Part shown: piece by piece, positions 20,636 to 57,222 of the stretch
How the letters are laid out: every line of letters starts with the position of its first letter
Position numbering within the stretch: the first letter of the stretch is position 1
Virus record (IMG/VR): IMGVR_UViG_3300005613_003484
Location: 2,540 to 66,539 of that record
Reading direction: 5' to 3' (one strand)
Source: a virus
Length of the DNA stretch: 64,000 nucleotides
The notes under the pieces: generated by a model
What the model was told of the DNA's origin: nothing
Databases searched by the model: none
The model's input: only the letters and a program-made list of their open reading frames with translations
Program-made: the position numbers and the translations under genes

Positions 20636-22910
20636 AATCTTCCTCCTGTGCGTTTTCTAGTTCGTTCAATAGATTGTTAAGTTTATCAGAATTGTCAGAA
20701 ACCTCATCGGTCTTAAGATCATGGGTATTCTGATAATAGGATGTTTTCCATCCATATTTGTAAGTTGTTAGAAGATCCTGAGCCATCACAGAAACTGGAA
20801 CTTCATTGTCTGGATAGTGTTCTGGATTATAACTCCAGTTTCCACTAATCGCCTGATCAAAAAATTTCTGCATAACAGAAACAATTTTGACATAACCATC
20901 GTTTGATGGCATATCCCACAGCAATGTGTAGTTGTTTTTAAGTGTAGCATATTGAGGGACAATTTGCTTAAGGGGGCCCTTCTTGGATTTCTTGATTGAC
21001 AAAAATCCGCGAGGAGGTTCAATTCCATTTGTAGCATTTGATACCACAGAACTACTTTCAGATGGCATCTGTGCAGATAAAGTTGAGTGCCTTAGACCAT
21101 GAGAAAGAATATCAGCACGTAAAGACTCCCAATCATGTTGATATTCTATAGAACTAATTTCGTCCACGTCCTTCTTATATGTATCGATTGGAAGAATTCC
21201 GTCTGCATACTTAGTTCTATGGAAGTATTCACAAGCACCTTTTTCTTTTGCAATTTGATTTGATGCTTTCAGTAGATAATATTGGAATGACTCAGAGAGA
21301 CCATGTACTGCATCCCATGCCTCCTGTGAATCATATTTGAATCCAAGTTTGGCAAGATAGTGTGCCAGACCAATGAAACCGACTCCAAGCGATCTCCGTG
21401 CCTTTGTGGCTAATTCTGCTGCAATGATTGGATACTTCTGATAATCAATGAGTTCTTCAAGACCACGAACGGCAAGATTACAAAGTTCTTCAAGTTCCTC
21501 ATCAGATTTTACTCTACCGACATTAATTGCAGAAAGAATACACAATGCAATTTCACCATCACCATCAATGTGCTGAAGTGGTTTTGTTGGAAGTGTGATT
21601 TCTTGGCAAAGGTTACTCATCTCAACTTTATCCTTGAAAGATGAGTGAGAATTACAATGATCAATATTCATGATGTAAATACGACCAGTTTCTGCTCGTT
21701 CTTTTAGAAGGTCTAGAATGAGTTCTTGGGCACCGATTCGCTTTTTGGGGATTGAATCGTCTGATTCGTAATTGATGTACATAGAATCAAACTCAGGAGT
21801 CCCAAAAGCATCATATAACCCAGGGACATCATGGGGAGAAAATAAAGTGATTTCTCCGTTTTGAATGAATCTTTCATAGAAGATTTTGCTGATCTGTATC
21901 GAATAATCCAGTTTCCGTACACGGTTATCCTCCGTTCCTTTATTATTTTTTAGAACTAGAATGTCTTCTATTTCTTGGTGCCAAATGGGAAAATGGACAG
22001 TAGCTGATCCGCCACGGATTCCATTTTGTGTGCAGCATCGTACAGTTGATTCAAACTTTTTAAGGAAAGGAATAACGCCTGTGTGCTGAACTTCTCCGCC
22101 TCTGATCTTACTGTTGATGCCACGAATTCTCCCCGCATTAATGCCGATTCCAGCCCTTTGTGCGACATAACGGCCAATAGCCATATCGCTAGAAAAGATA
22201 CTATCGAGGGTGTCATCAACATCAACCAGAACACAAGATGCAAATTGGCGAAGAGGCGTTCTGACTCCCGCCATGATTGGGGTTGGGATGTTGAGTTTGT
22301 GTTTTGAGATTGCATCGTAATACCTCTTGACGTAGGAAAGTCTTTTTTCTTTAGGGTATTCTGCAAAGATTGTCAATGCAATCATCATGTACATGAATTG
22401 TGGGGTTTCATAAACTTTCCCACTACTCCTATCCTGAACAAGATACTTGTCTACAACTTGACGAAGACCAGCATATGTGAATAGAAAATCTCGACTGTGA
22501 TCAATGAATTGATCTACCTTTGCAAATTCTTCTTTTGTATAATTATCAAGGATTGCTGCGTCATATACGCCACAATCAATACATTTCTTAACATGATCTA
22601 GGAGAGTTGGAAACTCCCGAATCTTGTCATAAATTTGCTTTCGGATTGAAAACAAAAGTAGTCTTGCAGCTACATATTGATAGTTGGGATGATCCAAATC
22701 AATTAAATCTGATGCAGATCGAATCAAGATCTTTTGAATTTCTTCAGTAGTAATCCCATCATAAAATTGAATACCAGATTGAATTTCAACCTGAGATGCA
22801 GAAACTCCCGCAAGATCTTTACATGCTTCATCGACCATAACGTGCATTTTTTCAAGGTCGATTGATTCGACTAGACCACTTCTTTTAATTACGTGAATTC
22901 CGTTGCTCAT
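20616..22910 (-). CDS. nrdA: ribonucleotide reductase class Ia alpha subunit
   Basis: ATP cone, PTPIMAG, ASCVL, SNLCQEI, MPSESSS, C-terminal CESCKI. Confidence 0.97.
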   Translation of the reverse strand: MSNGIHVIKRSGLVESIDLEKMHVMVDEACKDLAGVSASQVEIQSGIQFYDGITTEEIQKILIRSASDLIDLDHPNYQYVAARLLLFSIRKQIYDKIREFPTLLDHVKKCIDCGVYDAAILDNYTKEEFAKVDQFIDHSRDFLFTYAGLRQVVDKYLVQDRSSGKVYETPQFMYMMIALTIFAEYPKEKRLSYVKRYYDAISKHKLNIPTPIMAGVRTPLRQFASCVLVDVDDTLDSIFSSDMAIGRYVAQRAGIGINAGRIRGINSKIRGGEVQHTGVIPFLKKFESTVRCCTQNGIRGGSATVHFPIWHQEIEDILVLKNNKGTEDNRVRKLDYSIQISKIFYERFIQNGEITLFSPHDVPGLYDAFGTPEFDSMYINYESDDSIPKKRIGAQELILDLLKERAETGRIYIMNIDHCNSHSSFKDKVEMSNLCQEITLPTKPLQHIDGDGEIALCILSAINVGRVKSDEELEELCNLAVRGLEELIDYQKYPIIAAELATKARRSLGVGFIGLAHYLAKLGFKYDSQEAWDAVHGLSESFQYYLLKASNQIAKEKGACEYFHRTKYADGILPIDTYKKDVDEISSIEYQHDWESLRADILSHGLRHSTLSAQMPSESSSVVSNATNGIEPPRGFLSIKKSKKGPLKQIVPQYATLKNNYTLLWDMPSNDGYVKIVSVMQKFFDQAISGNWSYNPEHYPDNEVPVSVMAQDLLTTYKYGWKTSYYQNTHDLKTDEVSDNSDKLNNLLNELENAQEEDCESCKI

Positions 22911-23875
22911 ATCTTTTTCCAATTTAAGAATTTTAGTTTTGCTTCCAGACCGGAGTATGTATTAGATTTTATCACACTTTGAACATCATGTCCAGATAAA
23001 ACCATGTCATTGATATCCTTTTCGGTTACATGACTTGGCCAGATGACGACCTTTTCGTTTCTTTCAATACAAGATTCAATTCTCCTGACAATCTCTCGAT
23101 TGCGGGGTTCATTATCATAAACAAAAACGAGATCGCTTCCCTCAAGACAACGAACGTCACCATCGCTGCCACACAAAGCCACACTATTGCTAAGGAAAGT
23201 GCTGTCGAAGGGTCCTTCGACCACATAGATTGGTAATTCTTTATTGATTGTATCAAGTCCATATATCTTTGGTACTCCTTCAGCAAGCATTACAGTAATG
23301 TATTTAACAGATTTTTTATCTAATGCTCTTCCTTGAAATCCAACCAAACTTTTTTCCTGGTATAGAGGAATAATAATCCTGGGTTCTTGACGTAAATTTT
23401 TATAGTGATCATTTCCAAATGTTTCTACAAAAGCACGAAAGTCTTCTGCATAATAGAATTTGGTAGGATCAACTTTACGGTTCTGAAGATAGGTGCCAGC
23501 ACTTTCTATGTCAGAACATAATGGCAAATGAATACGTTGTGTAAAATTTGGTTTCTCAAAAACAAACTTAGATTCATCTGGTAAAGACTTTTTTCTTGAA
23601 AAACCACTCTTGAATTTTTCAAGATAATACTGTTTGTGTAATTGAGAATCAACATCCTTTAAAAAGTTATTAAAGGATAAACTTATCCCACAATTATGAC
23701 ACTTAAAGTTTGTATTGTTTTTTACAGAATATAGGTATCCTCTTGCCTTGTTCTTATTCCTTTTTGAGTCACCACAAATTGGACATCTAAAATTATATAA
23801 GTTTGACTTGACCTTCTTAAACTTGTGTAAACGTGGGGAGAGTAGACTGATGTACTTGGAATCTATCAGATCCAT
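22907..23875 (-). CDS. gp61: DNA primase (T4 gp61)
   Basis: CPICGDS...CHNC Zn finger; VEGPFDS and DNEPRN TOPRIM motifs. Confidence 0.95.
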   Translation of the reverse strand: MDLIDSKYISLLSPRLHKFKKVKSNLYNFRCPICGDSKRNKNKARGYLYSVKNNTNFKCHNCGISLSFNNFLKDVDSQLHKQYYLEKFKSGFSRKKSLPDESKFVFEKPNFTQRIHLPLCSDIESAGTYLQNRKVDPTKFYYAEDFRAFVETFGNDHYKNLRQEPRIIIPLYQEKSLVGFQGRALDKKSVKYITVMLAEGVPKIYGLDTINKELPIYVVEGPFDSTFLSNSVALCGSDGDVRCLEGSDLVFVYDNEPRNREIVRRIESCIERNEKVVIWPSHVTEKDINDMVLSGHDVQSVIKSNTYSGLEAKLKFLNWKKI

Positions 23876-24269
23876 TTGCGGGTTGAACTTCTCTATGGAT
23901 CATACCGACATTTTCGCTGCGTGTCAAGGTAAGTCCAACATGGGGCAAAATCTGAATTAAGGAAAGAATCGCCGTGAGTGTCGCCCCTGCAGTCCAGACA
24001 ATCCTTTGCAATTCACCAAACTTTCTTTCAAGACTTATAATGTCATTTTCAAGTTTTTTTGTGAGAGAGATCATTGCCTCCTCAGCCTTATCAGAATCCT
24101 CTAGTCTTTGTTCGTGTCTTTCTAAAATAATTGCAACTCGATTGCTGTTCTCTTGAATGGATGAAACCGCTCTTTCCAGTTTATCCATCATCTCTTTAGA
24201 AAGAGATTCATAAATGTCAATTTTTTGTTCAAGAACCGCGAGTCTTTCCACTTTTCTTGTGCCGAACAT
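23817..24269 (-). CDS. coiled-coil protein with C-terminal TM helix
   Basis: LAVLEQK...ILERHEQRL heptads, then WTAGATLTAILSLI. Confidence 0.75.
   Translation of the reverse strand: MFGTRKVERLAVLEQKIDIYESLSKEMMDKLERAVSSIQENSNRVAIILERHEQRLEDSDKAEEAMISLTKKLENDIISLERKFGELQRIVWTAGATLTAILSLIQILPHVGLTLTRSENVGMIHREVQPANGSDRFQVHQSTLPTFTQV
23899..23927 (-). promoter_or_regulatory. sigma70-type promoter for primase-nrdAB
   Basis: TTGACA-17-TATGAT inside the 3' end of the upstream ORF. Confidence 0.7.
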
Positions 24270-24486
24270 TTTTTTTGATCCTTTTAAGTGAATTTTGATA
24301 GAAACTACTTAGAGTTTTGTACCTTTTCTTCCTTCCATCAAAATCCATAACTGGGTCATAACCTGCTGTGGGAGAACCGGAATCTGTTTGACCGCTTCCA
24401 CGATAGAATGCCCCACCACCGGAAGAAAAACTCATTTCTTCACGAATCATTTGAATTATTCTATCCAATAGATATTTATTTCTCAT
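24229..24486 (-). CDS. small protein carrying a copy of the gp23 N-arm motif
   Basis: SFSSGGGAFYRGSGQTDSGSPTAGYDPV matches gp23 residues 63-90. Confidence 0.8.
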   Translation of the reverse strand: MRNKYLLDRIIQMIREEMSFSSGGGAFYRGSGQTDSGSPTAGYDPVMDFDGRKKRYKTLSSFYQNSLKRIKKNVRHKKSGKTRGS

Positions 24487-24854
24487 ACGTCTTTGAGGAT
24501 TTGCATACACTTATCATCTATTGGAATATCTGTCAATGTTGACTTTGGATATTCTGAGAATCGGTTTAAAAAAACTAGAAAGGTTTTAGCACAGGGCCAA
24601 AGACTTTCTTCTAATTTATAGAAAAGAAGTGGGACAGTCGCTTCGCCAAAAACATTAAAAAGAATTATCAAGTGGTTTAAAATTAGATTAACCTTTAATG
24701 CACCAGAAGACTCATATCTTTTGAAGAGTCTTTTAATATATTTAAATCTCTTCATATCTTCATAAAAGTCATCCTCAGTTATCGACTGAGGATTGTCATA
24801 ATATTTAATGGCAAAAAGAAGATAATTCTTATCGTTCAACTCAGAAAACTTCAT
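24483..24854 (-). CDS. conserved T4-like cyanophage hypothetical protein
   Basis: LFAIKYYDNP...DMKRFKYIKRL...LILNHLIIL.NVFG. Confidence 0.8.
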   Translation of the reverse strand: MKFSELNDKNYLLFAIKYYDNPQSITEDDFYEDMKRFKYIKRLFKRYESSGALKVNLILNHLIILFNVFGEATVPLLFYKLEESLWPCAKTFLVFLNRFSEYPKSTLTDIPIDDKCMQILKDV

Positions 24855-24857
24855 TTA

Positions 24858-25448
24858 TCAAGCAATTGGGTAATCTCTATTTCCAGTGGTGATGCCAGAC
24901 ATGGCGACTAGTGTCTCTGCCTTAATGCGAAGATTGCCATGGTTGTCGGTATAGGTCACAACTCCGACCCATCCACCATGAGTTACTGCATCTAGATAAT
25001 CGCTTCTACCGCTCACAGGATCGCTTGTAGTGAGTCCTAGAGTGCCAGCAGTGACAGCATAGATCTTAGAGTTATAATCACGCTGATCATCGGAGGATGA
25101 GGGTGCAAAGGCGGGATCAGTGTCCATGTAGATTGGTTGCTCACTGAAAATCATATATCTGCTGCTGTAATCATTTCCAGCATCCCAATCTCTAGTGTCA
25201 ATCGCCGTTGTGGTAATTGACATACTGGTGGAACTTGCAATAGAAGTGATCACACCAAACCCAGAAGTTTGGCCAAGACCCAGAGTGATTACATTGCCAA
25301 CTTCAAGATTGGTGAAAGTACAAACGCCAATGCCGCCAGTAACTGTACCACCAGAAGTAACAGTAACGATTCCGAGACCAGTTCCTACATTTGCTAAAGC
25401 GTTAATGCTACTAACGCCGATGTTGTCGTTGTTTCCCCAGAGAGCCAT
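24858..25448 (-). CDS. probable virion structural protein
   Basis: MALWGNND start, HGGWVG...GNLRIKAETLVAM end, Gly/Thr-rich; late promoter upstream. Confidence 0.75.
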   Translation of the reverse strand: MALWGNNDNIGVSSINALANVGTGLGIVTVTSGGTVTGGIGVCTFTNLEVGNVITLGLGQTSGFGVITSIASSTSMSITTTAIDTRDWDAGNDYSSRYMIFSEQPIYMDTDPAFAPSSSDDQRDYNSKIYAVTAGTLGLTTSDPVSGRSDYLDAVTHGGWVGVVTYTDNHGNLRIKAETLVAMSGITTGNRDYPIA

Positions 25449-25481: not shown

Positions 25482-25516
25482 GTATTTATAAAAATGGGGG
25501 ACCTAGTAATCCCCCA
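25482..25516 (-). terminator. terminator fused to late promoter TATAAATA
   Basis: TGGGGGA...TCCCCCA-TTTTTATAAATA. Confidence 0.7.
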
Positions 25517-53988: not shown

Positions 53989-55410
53989 TTACATCAAGTT
54001 CTTAACAGAAACTCTTCTGTAGTAGCGGTTGGTGCCTGCCTTAATAGCACCGAAGGCAGTATCAGTACCTTCAGCGAAGGGATTAGCGACCATGCCGTAG
54101 CGGGTCTTAAATCCGATCTTGGGCTGGAAGGTGTTCTCTCCAACGGCACGTACCATCTGTAGAGGTACATAGGGGCAGTAGAAGAGACCAGCGTCATAAG
54201 GTGAAGAACCCTTATAACCAACAACGTAATACTGGAGTGCAGTGTTGTTAGCAGCGAAGGGGTCGATATAAACGCGATACTTACCGTTGATGGTTCCAGC
54301 AAAGGTGTTGCCAGTGTCGTCAACGTTAAGGTTAGCGTTGAGGGCAGGGGTGTAATCAAGTACACCAGCCATGGTGAGAGCAGAAGCAACATCAGCAGAA
54401 GTTAGGATGATGTTACCCTTTCCTCTACGAGTTCTCTGAGCGATCTGGTTAGCGTCTCTTTCAATTTGGAAGAGAAGACCCTTGAACTTCTCAACAGACC
54501 AACGACCGTTGGAGTCGATATCGAGGTCAAACTGACCAGCGGTAGCGGTGTTGAGTTGAGCACCAGACTCAGCAGACTTATAGATGGTTCTGATTACTTC
54601 GCGGTTGATCTCGGCAAGAATCTCAGTAGAGAGAATGTTGGCGAGTTCTGCTTCAGCGTTCAGACCATGAATAGCCTTGAGGTCTTGTGCTAGTTCTAGG
54701 GAGTACTCTGCCTTGAGTGCTCTGGACTTCGCAGTCACGGTGACTTTCTCGATGGAGAATGCCATCTGGTTGAAGTCAGTTCCGCTCTCGCCTAGGGCTT
54801 CAGAGTCGGTAACTGCCATACCCTGACCTACGCTGTAGGTGCTAGGAGCAGCATTAGGATCGAGAACACCAGGATTAGAACCACGCTGGAGGGTAGTACC
54901 GAAACCAACAGCACCGCCGCTGTCAGAACCACCAGTGTAGTCACCCTGAGTGGTGGCATAAGCAGAGTTCTGAGCAGAGAATGCAGAATCGGGCTCGTTG
55001 AATAGGGCCTCGGTTCCAGTCATGTTCTCATAGCGAGAACGCATTGCGAAGATAAGTCCAGTAGGACCGTTCATGGGTTGAACGCCAGCAAGGTCATAAG
55101 CGACCAAGTTGGGCATGGAGCGTCTGATTAGAGAAATCAGAACGGGGTCAAAACCACCAGTTGGAGTGCCGCTATCAGTTCCGCCAGAACCGCGATAGTA
55201 AGCACCACCACCAGTGGAGAAAGAGTTGGTGGGTTGCTCTTGGAGGTCAAAACCGCCATCAGCAAAGGCTTTTTCCTCTCTGAGGAAACGCTCTTGATTT
55301 TCTAGAAGTTGGGCAGTTACAGCTCTACGATGTGAATCTTTGATCGCATCGCAACCTTCATAATCTAGAAGGGGAGCCCACTTCTCTAGGAGTTGGGGAT
55401 TGTTGTACAT
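53989..55410 (-). CDS. gp23: major capsid protein (gp23)
   Basis: KWAPLL, LENQE, FDPVLISLIRR, GVQPM.GPTG, SRALKAEYS.ELAQDL, FQPKIGFKTRYG. Confidence 0.98.
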   Translation of the reverse strand: MYNNPQLLEKWAPLLDYEGCDAIKDSHRRAVTAQLLENQERFLREEKAFADGGFDLQEQPTNSFSTGGGAYYRGSGGTDSGTPTGGFDPVLISLIRRSMPNLVAYDLAGVQPMNGPTGLIFAMRSRYENMTGTEALFNEPDSAFSAQNSAYATTQGDYTGGSDSGGAVGFGTTLQRGSNPGVLDPNAAPSTYSVGQGMAVTDSEALGESGTDFNQMAFSIEKVTVTAKSRALKAEYSLELAQDLKAIHGLNAEAELANILSTEILAEINREVIRTIYKSAESGAQLNTATAGQFDLDIDSNGRWSVEKFKGLLFQIERDANQIAQRTRRGKGNIILTSADVASALTMAGVLDYTPALNANLNVDDTGNTFAGTINGKYRVYIDPFAANNTALQYYVVGYKGSSPYDAGLFYCPYVPLQMVRAVGENTFQPKIGFKTRYGMVANPFAEGTDTAFGAIKAGTNRYYRRVSVKNLM

Positions 55411-55473
55411 CTTTCTAGTGTTAGATTGCAGTTTAAGGGTTTCTTATCAAAAATATTTATAAAGAGGTTAACT

Positions 55474-56520
55474 TCACTTAATTCTTGAGAGGGTTTCAAG
55501 GTAACGGGTCATTGAACCAGAAACATCGGGTCCACTGCCTGTACCCTCAGAAAGAGTCTCAGGACTATCAGTTACGTTAGCACTGGGAAAATATGATTCT
55601 CTCAGTGTGGTTAACTTATCACGGTAAGATTCTTCACCCTCAAACTCAACACCTTCTGCAAGAGAAGCGAGTTTTTCCTTCTGAGTTAAAGCGAGTCCTT
55701 CAGAGACATCGCTAAAGATTGTTTCAGCCGTAGCTTCTCCAAGTCTTCTGTTCAGTTGGATATTTCTCTCGATTTGCTCGTTGAGCTTGGTCTCCATGTC
55801 ATCAAGTTTTTCTACCATATTCTCGACCACATCATATTTATCTTCAGGGATTGAAACATAATGATCTTCAAAAAGACTTCTCATTCCTTGGAGGAATGAT
55901 TCAGTCATCTCAGACTTCAGACCATGCTCGATCTGAAGTGCATTCTCTTCGATCCATTCTTGAGAAACATACTCAAGATATGAATCAACTCTTTCGGTCA
56001 TCTCTTCTTTGAGATTCTCTAGTTCTTCTGCTAGAGCAAGTGCATATTTCTCTGCGATTGCTTCCTTAGCTTCTTCGATTCTTACACGAACAGCAGCTTC
56101 AAAAACAGTTTTTGCCTTTTCTTGAAACTCTTCGGAAAGTTCTTCACCAGCAAAGAGAGCAGCAACGTCTTCATCAACGTTGACTTCTTCTTCTACTTCT
56201 TCTACTTCTTCTTCAGGTTCAACTTCAGAGATTACTTCCTCAGAGTCTTCTTCAACCTCCTCTCTACGCATTCCTTTCATAGTTTCTGCAGGTTTTGCTC
56301 CTCTGTTGACTACATCCTTAACTTGTGATAAGGATGCACCAGGATCTCTTAGTTTTGCTGAATCGTCGTCAGGTCTGTAGTTTTCAGGTGTGGGACCACC
56401 GAGGTCTTCAATCTGGGCATGGCCAGGAACATATGAATTTTTAGTGGAAGCATCCATACCTTCACCTGCCTTTGCGCCCTTAGACACGACGTTATCCATT
56501 TCTTGTAAATTGGCGGACAT
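55474..56520 (-). CDS. gp22: prohead core scaffold protein (gp22)
   Basis: LGGPTPEN, ELSEEF.EKAKT.FEAA, VDSYLEYV..EW. Confidence 0.93.
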   Translation of the reverse strand: MSANLQEMDNVVSKGAKAGEGMDASTKNSYVPGHAQIEDLGGPTPENYRPDDDSAKLRDPGASLSQVKDVVNRGAKPAETMKGMRREEVEEDSEEVISEVEPEEEVEEVEEEVNVDEDVAALFAGEELSEEFQEKAKTVFEAAVRVRIEEAKEAIAEKYALALAEELENLKEEMTERVDSYLEYVSQEWIEENALQIEHGLKSEMTESFLQGMRSLFEDHYVSIPEDKYDVVENMVEKLDDMETKLNEQIERNIQLNRRLGEATAETIFSDVSEGLALTQKEKLASLAEGVEFEGEESYRDKLTTLRESYFPSANVTDSPETLSEGTGSGPDVSGSMTRYLETLSRIK

Positions 56521-56571
56521 TTGAACTCTCCGAATCTAGATCTTAAGTGAAAATCTATACTTATTTATAAT

Positions 56572-57222
56572 TTATAGATTTGATAGGAAGTCTTTAAACA
56601 GATTTAATTTGTTTTCTTCCAGTCTTTTTTGATCAACAAGTGTGTTGATCTTCTTATAAGTTTTCTCCGCAAATCTTTCACGAAGAATTCCACCATCCCA
56701 AACCCATTCCTTACCTTCCATAATGCCATTCACAAAGGCATCAGGAGCAGAGGGATCAGCAACAATATCTGCAGCGGTGGCAAGAGAAAAGTCATCATTT
56801 ACCATGTTATATCCTTCTTTTGTTGGAGTTAAAGTTCCAACACCTCTTGAAGATACACCAAGTTTTACACCATCATTGAGAAGAGCTTCAGCAATCTTTC
56901 CCATTGGAGTGGAAAGAATTTTTGCTTTACCAATAAAGTTATTACCTTCTCTTTGAAGTGAAACAATCTTATGAGAAACTCTATCTAGATTAATTGTTGG
57001 ACCATCAGGATGTCCAAGTTCACCTAGAGCACGACCTTTCTTGATGAAATTCTCATTATATCTACTCACTTCTCTTTCAAGAACATTGCAACTATACATT
57101 CTTCTGTTTCTATTGGCGATGTTTCCCTGAAGGAAAACGCCCTCGATGTAAAGATGCTTCTTACCGTTGCGTTGTTCAACGATAATTTCTACTTGTTCGA
57201 TCTCTTCTCTGATGAGTTTCAT
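56572..57222 (-). CDS. gp21: prohead protease (gp21)
   Basis: ALGELGHP, GVSSRG, DIVADPSAPDA. Confidence 0.96.
   Translation of the reverse strand: MKLIREEIEQVEIIVEQRNGKKHLYIEGVFLQGNIANRNRRMYSCNVLEREVSRYNENFIKKGRALGELGHPDGPTINLDRVSHKIVSLQREGNNFIGKAKILSTPMGKIAEALLNDGVKLGVSSRGVGTLTPTKEGYNMVNDDFSLATAADIVADPSAPDAFVNGIMEGKEWVWDGGILRERFAEKTYKKINTLVDQKRLEENKLNLFKDFLSNL

Follow-up and report, generated by a model that had tools for sequence, protein, structure and literature searches.

A small gene upstream of the primase gene in an IMG/VR virus encodes a copy of the predicted mature N-terminus of its major capsid protein

Introduction

In bacteriophage T4 a 65-residue propeptide of gp23, the major capsid protein, is removed by the prohead protease gp21, and residues 66-105 of the mature protein, gp23*, are described as disordered and pointing inward in the unexpanded head, where this N-terminal region contacts the scaffold (PMC9546572, PMC9958956). 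When the head expands, the region shifts to the outer surface and makes up an N-arm and a 25-residue N-fist; the N-fist touches four subunits, two belonging to its own capsomer and two to a neighbour, and takes part in forming the Soc site (PMC9546572, PMC9958956). The head-length mutants A66D, A94V and G97S map to the same region and are taken to act through scaffold contacts (PMC9546572). The T4 prohead core also holds the internal proteins IPI, IPII and IPIII, which carry a capsid targeting sequence and are likewise processed by gp21 (PMC9958956). Here we describe a small open reading frame (ORF) in a 64,000-nucleotide stretch of DNA from a T4-like cyanophage, positions 2,540 to 66,539 of the IMG/VR record IMGVR_UViG_3300005613_003484 (the window, to which all coordinates refer), that carries a near-copy of the very stretch of the window's own gp23 that corresponds to the T4 N-fist.

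A copy of the gp23 N-terminus in a small ORF

The comparison involves the following features.

24229..24486, minus strand: small ORF, the gp190 / gp61.1-like copy of the capsid N-terminus; ATG start at 24486, 85 residues plus a stop codon at 24229-24231
24439..24486, minus strand: leader, residues 1-16, a predicted helix ending in I-R-E, the candidate prohead-protease site (AlphaFold2 (AF2) model, alignment)
24349..24432, minus strand: 28-residue copy of gp23 residues 63-90, the equivalent of the T4 gp23* N-fist (translation, BLASTP)
24232..24348, minus strand: Lys/Arg-rich tail with a predicted amphipathic helix (sequence, AF2 helix 69-87, alignment)
55141-55224, minus strand: stretch of gp23 that matches the copy (translation)
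53989..55410, minus strand: major capsid protein gp23, 473 residues, with its L-Q-E site at 55237-55245 (PF07068, Gp23, over residues 86-469)

A first-pass annotation, made by a model from the letters of the window, had reported a gapless match between the small ORF and gp23, and translation of 24349-24432 and 55141-55224 reproduces both of the 28-mers that it quoted. The motif of the small ORF (SFSS..YDPV) and gp23 residues 63-90 are identical at 22 of 28 residues and at 56 of 84 nucleotides, while the runner-up among all ungapped 28-mers in the six-frame translation of the window has 9 identities, as befits a copy of the mature gp23 N-terminus at the protein level. The differing synonymous codons to which the annotation had pointed are also present, as the identical residues use the same codon in 7 cases and a different one in 15, with AGY paired with TCN at three Ser positions. 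By BLASTP the small ORF matches gp23 with E = 3e-14, and the similarity is limited to gp23 residues 27-91; the same alignment pairs the leader helix with a conserved helix of the gp23 propeptide, across a 15-residue gap. Almost all of this similarity lies N-terminal to residue 86, at which the Pfam domain begins, and the Gp23 (PF07068) body is not present in the small ORF, for which no Pfam family was matched at E <= 0.1. The gp23 of the window itself matches the T4 gp23 structures (E = 3e-85), and on these alignments the small ORF copies the N-fist region of gp23. Because the N-fist, in the published accounts of T4, moves to the outside upon expansion, the location at the inner wall that had been suggested for the small protein cannot be assumed.

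A hydrophobic-x-Glu triplet stands ahead of the motif in both proteins, as I-R-E in the small ORF and as L-Q-E in gp23 (residues 56-58), and in the small ORF the motif is followed by a tail rich in Lys and Arg, both as first noted. The R-E pair is invariant among 47 aligned homologues and a protease of the Peptidase_S77 family is encoded in the window. An upstream GTG at 24510 would yield an alternative form of 93 residues (24229-24510, minus strand, eight residues more); the ATG is the likely start because most of the 47 homologues begin there. The residues added by the GTG start look like the start of gp23, which we take to be chance, the extension not being common to the homologues. Short contigs from three metatranscriptome libraries cover parts of the operon, one of them, of 168 bases, covering 24264-24431 with 2 differences (run X20, depth 3). 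With such small shares, and since DNA can be the source of contigs in RNA libraries, they are at most a weak hint that the operon is transcribed, and stretches without such contigs carry no information.

The AF2 model of this short form (predicted local distance difference test (pLDDT) score 66.8) consists of two helices, the leader helix 5-28 and the tail helix 69-87 in the numbering from the GTG, which flank a disordered copy; the copy has no secondary structure as assigned by DSSP and a pLDDT of 53-61. A search of the PDB with the small-ORF profile gave no meaningful match (best E = 0.089). A complex of two gp23 molecules (residues 91-473) with the small protein (residues 25-93), predicted from separate alignments, scored 0.01 against a mark of 0.32, which gives no answer either way.

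A family of short and long proteins in cyanophages

The small ORF matches phrog_3286, a family of unknown function (2.4e-8), and more weakly phrog_696, labelled 'major head protein' (4.4e-6). On this profile match, together with its position after a DUF7207 gene, it belongs to the cyanomyovirus Syn9 gp190 family. A profile built from five homologues found 274 clusters at 90% identity, each either hypothetical or without a name, and a search of 1.84 billion representatives with one built from 47 sequences gave 185 clusters at 50% identity. The DUF7207 gene, which has tblastn matches in 489 phage records, served as the anchor for examining the locus in 20 named cyanophages, and the gp23 of each phage was fetched for comparison. 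Four IMG/VR contigs that hold both genes were added, drawn from the 25 longest contigs searched for gp23 among 52 loci. Five of the IMG/VR loci (L058-L062) proved to be gp23 itself and were dropped. In all 20 cyanophage records the primase gene follows one to three genes downstream of the family member.

These proteins have a common layout, with an optional leader helix, a hydrophobic-x-Glu triplet, usually Glu/Asp-Met, a copy rich in Gly, Ala, Ser and Thr that ends in an anchor of the type G-P-x-A-G-(Y/F)-D-P, and finally a stretch rich in Lys and Arg. The short forms, to which the protein of the window and phrog_3286 belong, end after the basic stretch, while the long forms continue with a variable extension of a further 100-200 residues, modelled by AF2 in one case (P0402, pLDDT 69.7) as a small beta-beta-alpha-beta domain and a long helix. 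This extra domain has no PDB match at E <= 0.001 and matches only its own uncharacterised relatives in a viral structure library. In 21 of 25 homologues the copy is directly preceded by a leader with hydrophobic-x-Glu; in the other four (P-TIM40, S-RIM8, Syn30 and S-RIM2) the protein begins at the copy, so the candidate cleavage would not be universal. In the alignment of 47 sequences the invariant positions are the R-E of the putative cut site and one Pro and one Asp of the anchor, and the basic block is conserved and followed by a nearly invariant Tyr (Y71). The basic stretch also follows the copy in each of ten homologues whose tails were read outside the alignments.

Several loci depart from this plan. 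In P-SSM2 the locus (L071:1872-2818) is rearranged, such that a 100-residue ORF begins with the leader helix of the family and then turns rich in Gly and Asn, and the gp23-like copy and the basic tail are found at the C-terminus of the next ORF, of 215 residues. Two metagenomic proteins, P0243 (183 residues) and P0387 (203 residues), each contain two units of leader, cut site and copy in tandem, and the residues after the cut in the first unit are those of a typical gp23* N-terminus. In Methylophilales phage Melnitz (L074/L078) the DUF7207 gene is present and the next ORF encodes an unrelated 203-residue protein without the motif; when the N-terminus of its own gp23 was used as query, no second copy turned up in this one genome, whose fist is very short.

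Many of the homologues, including Syn9 gp190 (L070:1860-2384) and those of P-TIM40, S-RIM8, Syn30 and S-SCSM1, bear the label 'major head protein' in RefSeq, as does phrog_696. They share with gp23 only their N-terminal ~30-60 residues, and judged by these alignments the label is a misnomer, one that can mislead, and could contaminate, surveys that use the capsid protein as a marker gene.

Gene 61.1 of T4 and its counterparts

T4 itself appears to have a counterpart. Gene 61.1 (NP_049649.1, 54 residues, 'hypothetical protein'; phrog_1823, with long forms in phrog_2086) abuts the primase gene 61, and its product consists of a start of the capsid-targeting type ending in I-K-E, then D-M, a copy of gp23 and K-K-K-K. 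Across the maturation site and the next 27 residues it aligns with T4 gp23 with a score of 82, compared to 25.9 +/- 4.8 for shuffled sequences (0/2000). Acinetobacter phage Ac42, Aeromonas phage 65 and Vibrio phage K491 have long forms adjoining the primase gene with the copy at the C-terminus, each matching its own gp23 (0/1000 shuffles each). One further copy of the phage's own gp23 N-terminus is encoded two genes upstream of the primase gene in Klebsiella phage PMBT1 (E = 2.5e-9) and in Escherichia phage KFS-EC (E = 2.4e-6). Like T4, these five phages belong to the Straboviridae. The ORF of the window shares with the 61.1 family its placement upstream of the primase gene, with the DUF7201 gene between them, and its layout of hydrophobic-x-Glu, copy of the cognate gp23 and Lys/Arg-rich stretch, but it matches neither phrog_1823 nor phrog_2086. 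The searchable literature yielded no described function for T4 gp61.1, and no description of the function of Syn9 gp190 or of its resemblance to gp23.

The operon and the head genes of the window

The small ORF is the third gene of an apparent late operon that leads towards the primase gene, and the head genes lie some distance away.

25495..25516, minus strand: terminator-like hairpin with a 9-bp stem, a few bases upstream of the late promoter core (consensus scan)
25483..25490, minus strand: T4-type late promoter core TATAAATA ahead of the operon (pattern search)
24858..25448, minus strand: operon gene 1, 196 residues, in the position of Syn9 gp188 (phrog_3086; phrog_613, 'head protein')
24483..24854, minus strand: operon gene 2, 123 residues, DUF7207 ('gp189'), the synteny anchor (phrog_407, PF23837)
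23817..24269, minus strand: gene downstream of the small ORF, 150 residues, coiled coil and hydrophobic C-terminal segment, DUF7201 ('gp191') (PF23831)
22907..23875, minus strand: DNA primase gp61, the conserved neighbour (phrog_47; synteny in 20 cyanophage records and T4-like phages)
56572..57222, minus strand: prohead protease gp21 (PF03420, Peptidase_S77, E = 1.4e-36)
55474..56520, minus strand: scaffold protein gp22, strongly acidic (PF25623, T4_CASP, E = 2.3e-79)

The order in the window is thus late promoter core, 196-residue gene, DUF7207 gene, small ORF, DUF7201 gene and primase gene. The promoter core occurs at 9 sites in the window, compared to 4.6 expected in the pattern search, and it is also found upstream of gp23 (55454-55461) and gp22 (56562-56569). 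The core ahead of the operon supports, at the level of sequence, the late status that had been assigned to the small ORF. The hairpin stands before the core in the direction of transcription, and early read-through may end where late transcription begins. Other phage records label the gene in the gp188 position 'head protein' or 'virion structural protein gp188', and the 196-residue gene of the window is equated with it by position only. The DUF7201 protein, labelled 'holin-like' in S-SCSM1, is encoded in a different frame and its gene overlaps the small ORF by 41 nt (24229-24269). One metagenomic protein (P0077, 119 residues, from a 108-kb contig) reads as the small ORF fused to the start of the DUF7201 protein, for which a frameshift, a sequencing error or a real fusion is possible. 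A near-consensus sigma-70-type promoter (TTGACA, 17 nt, TATGAT; 23899-23927, minus strand) lies inside the 150-residue ORF just upstream of the primase start, which fits separate early expression of the primase gene.

A hint of where such proteins end up comes from S-SCSM1, in which the homologue SSCSM1_97 is annotated 'virion protein'; according to the published account, 45 phage proteins, 13 of them of unknown function, were identified by mass spectrometry in virions of this phage purified in CsCl (PMC9602691). Four complete cyanophage genomes (S-T4, Syn9, P-SSM2 and P-TIM40) were searched with full-length gp23 and yielded no gp24-like vertex paralogue, whereas gp24 was recovered from T4, which served as the control (E = 9.5e-13). 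Since T4 encodes gp24 as well as 61.1, the small protein is not simply a substitute for gp24. Among PDB entries only those of T4-type gp23 and gp24 match the window's gp23, and no cyanomyovirus capsid is present.

The copy and the gp23 of the same phage

The first-pass annotation had predicted that the motif would vary together with the gp23 of its own phage. When every small-ORF module was scored against every gp23 arm and the true pairings were compared with permuted ones, the summed true score was 1557 versus 1086 +/- 70 for 21 pairs and 1878 versus 1322 +/- 75 for 25 pairs of phages or contigs, a value that no permutation reached in either case (0/20000). As related phages share both genes, the set was also thinned to one phage per gp23-arm cluster (15 clusters), which gave 0/5000 in 20 of 20 random picks. 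The agreement comes in blocks that follow lineages: the window, S-T4 and Sf-CH8 have the long insertion G-G-G-A-(Y/F)-Y-R-G-S-G in both genes, Syn9 has TTGYTGGD in both gp23 and gp190, S-RIM8 has P-N-A-G and S-CRM01 V-G-A-D-G-F-Q-G-S in gp23 and in the copy, and S-G-L versus S-A-L distinguishes S-RSM4 from S-CAM1 in both genes. Such a block structure is not expected from shared ancestry alone, since all comparisons between the paralogues trace to one duplication. Between the groups, moreover, the scores of each protein with its own gp23 (59-128 in cyanophages, 67-81 in the T4 type) exceed those of the two groups with each other, and this excess would be the strongest sign of concerted change if the groups are orthologous. 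Overall these comparisons suggest that the copy tends, in part, to follow the gp23 of its own phage, with clear exceptions that are set out below.

Concerted change can arise through selection or through gene conversion, and synonymous codons bear on the choice. In 21 cognate alignments, 300 identical residues with degenerate codons use the same codon 126 times, compared to 147 expected from gp23 codon usage, and in none of the 21 lineages is there an excess of shared codons. By this codon measure recent homogenisation of the two genes at the DNA level is excluded, and the claim that the match is maintained at the protein level is borne out; old conversions followed by purifying selection on both copies are possible.

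The role proposed for the copied peptide

As a tentative proposal, which we consider quite possible though short of probable, the small ORF encodes a small head-associated protein of the Syn9 gp190 family and, by layout and gene position, of the T4 gp61.1 type, whose gp23*-like peptide binds the receptor of the gp23 N-terminus. The protein would be made late and enter the assembling prohead, where gp21 would trim it after I-R-E; where the gene starts at the copy the N-terminus would already be free. It would then present a gp23*-like N-terminus, and this peptide would bind whatever receives the N-terminal peptide of gp23, most likely the surfaces of gp23 on which the N-fist docks once the shell has expanded, either where no gp23 donor is available or by competing with one. 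The basic helix would contact an acidic partner, either the packaged DNA or the acidic scaffold. As one co-evolving receptor would be shared by the two peptides, changes in gp23 would have to be matched in the copy.

A number of observations weigh against this proposal. The cognate gp23 ranks first for 8 of 21 copies and among the top three for 13, and it beats all arms outside its own cluster in just 12 of 25 cases. Syn30 and S-RIM2 (L082 and L091; gp23 in L103 and L102) have an S-RIM8-type copy beside a Syn9-type gp23, which may reflect exchange of the locus between lineages; P-SSM2, ACG-2014f and DSL-LC03 have in common a motif whose second half is different; and the copies of S-RSM4 and S-CAM1 barely match gp23. 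The length from cut site to anchor shows no significant correlation between the two proteins (r = 0.28, p = 0.22), as measured with automated anchors of which one (B23) is known to be misplaced. The cyanophage proteins and the T4-type 61.1 tails have pairwise scores of 27-41, for which there is no significance test, and with such low sequence similarity the case for common descent is one of layout and gene position, not of profiles. No perfect TATAAATA lies in the ~4.9 kb upstream of T4 61.1, the sole one in that 10-kb locus preceding soc, and hence late timing may not be general. Cleavage and head location of the small protein and its homologues are predictions from sequence, and because each gp23 subunit brings its own fist the vacant sites would be few at best.

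The resemblance to gp23 might also be a by-product of recombination, in which the 5' portion of gene 23 was repeatedly, and long ago, converted or duplicated anew into this locus, with any function residing in the basic tail or the C-terminal extensions independently of the likeness to gp23. Phages evidently tolerate a non-cognate copy, as the mismatched pairs of Syn30 and S-RIM2 show. The two genes are paralogous over the copied stretch, the similarity is block-wise and at the level of clades, as episodic conversion would give, and the tandem proteins P0243 and P0387 would fit as well. However, the codon counts require that all such conversions be old and that the copy then be kept by purifying selection, and the same layout persists from T4 to the cyanophages, so we hold this explanation to be very improbable.

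The main rival to docking at the N-fist sites is that the small protein is an internal head protein, in which the gp23-like peptide imitates the part of gp23 that meets the scaffold core (gp22/gp21) before maturation and so directs the protein into the core; following cleavage its basic tail would remain with the packaged DNA and might be injected, much like the T4 internal proteins with a different address label. The position of the T4 gp23 N-terminal region inside the unexpanded head, with the head-length mutants located there (PMC9546572), is in keeping with this, as are the typical capsid-targeting start of T4 61.1 ending in I-K-E, the basic stretch of all ten tails read outside the alignments, the acidity of the window's gp22 and the virion label of the S-SCSM1 homologue. 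The cyanophage leaders, however, are unlike starts of the MK.F..F.E type and 4 of 25 homologues have none, and one would look for a targeting signal ahead of the cut, not in the part that is retained. This explanation appears to us somewhat unlikely.

Since the copy in T4 and its relatives covers the cut site as well as the residues that follow, and the R-E is invariant and the protease gene lies close by among the head genes, the small protein might instead be directed at gp21, as a competing substrate or modulator that times or buffers the cleavage of gp23. T4 gp21 is not known to need much beyond hydrophobic-x-Glu for recognition, which leaves a cognate-specific copy of 28 residues and the conserved basic tail unexplained; the four homologues that lack any site before the copy, and the virion label in S-SCSM1, which is unexpected for a pure decoy, likewise make such a role improbable. 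A decoy of another kind is conceivable, as some bacterial defence systems sense major capsid proteins, and the copy could engage a host sensor that recognises the capsid protein N-terminus. Apart from that general fact little speaks for it: the gene lies in a late-promoter operon with virion genes, its S-SCSM1 homologue has a virion label, it retains a basic tail and a protease-type site, and the family is present across very different hosts, all of which makes a defence decoy highly improbable and close to negligible.

Returning to the proposal that the peptide occupies the gp23 N-terminus receptor, a bolder version of it would be that T4-like phages, from T4 to cyanophages of the sea, carry a detachable version of the N-fist, the peptide by which capsomers are locked together. 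It would co-evolve with the capsid protein and be incorporated in trans, completing or regulating the lattice where symmetry provides no donor subunit (portal and five-fold vertices) or during expansion. We consider this version distinctly unlikely; if true, it would define an unrecognised class of capsid component that works by mimicking part of the major capsid protein. Maps of T4 contain density beneath gp24 to which no protein is assigned (PMC9546572), although this density is helical. The assembly of the T4 head is one of the most thoroughly studied of pathways, and yet a gene conserved from T4 to ocean cyanophages, one that copies both the maturation site and the lattice-locking peptide of the capsid protein, has no described role in the searchable literature. 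Should the copy act on the capsid or the scaffold, it would be a new component of a textbook pathway and a case in which a virus imitates a structural protein of its own, and the T4 counterpart 61.1 makes a role in head assembly directly testable.

Comparison with known systems

The closest relatives of the small ORF are Syn9 gp190 and its kin (phrog_696; YP_717860.1), which share its gene position, an N-terminal copy of the cognate gp23 and the basic stretch that follows. They differ in that the long forms have ~170-300 residues, little or no leader, and an extra beta-beta-alpha-beta domain with a long helix, whereas the protein of the window is the short form (phrog_3286). T4 61.1 likewise has a leader with hydrophobic-x-Glu at its end, then a copy of the N-fist from T4 gp23 and a Lys-rich stretch; its leader, however, is of the classical 10-residue capsid-targeting type while that of the cyanophages is a longer helix, and it adjoins the primase gene, from which the window's ORF is separated by the DUF7201 gene. 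With the N-fist of T4 gp23*, as described in the accounts cited above, the small protein has in common that the copied stretch comprises the first residues after the maturation cut, but gp23* has an HK97-fold body and the small protein does not.

The T4 internal proteins (PMC9958956) resemble it in being small and basic, with an N-terminal leader that ends in hydrophobic-x-Glu, and in being associated with the head, as is proposed for the small protein. For the family described here packaging, cleavage and injection are possibilities, and the 16-residue leader of the window's protein is unlike their targeting sequence of ~10 residues, MK.(F/Y)..F..E, a start of which kind is found in T4 61.1. 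The T4 internal proteins are not known to copy gp23. Judging from sequence, the family would consist of small head proteins processed by the prohead protease and set apart by copying the mature N-terminus of the capsid protein itself.

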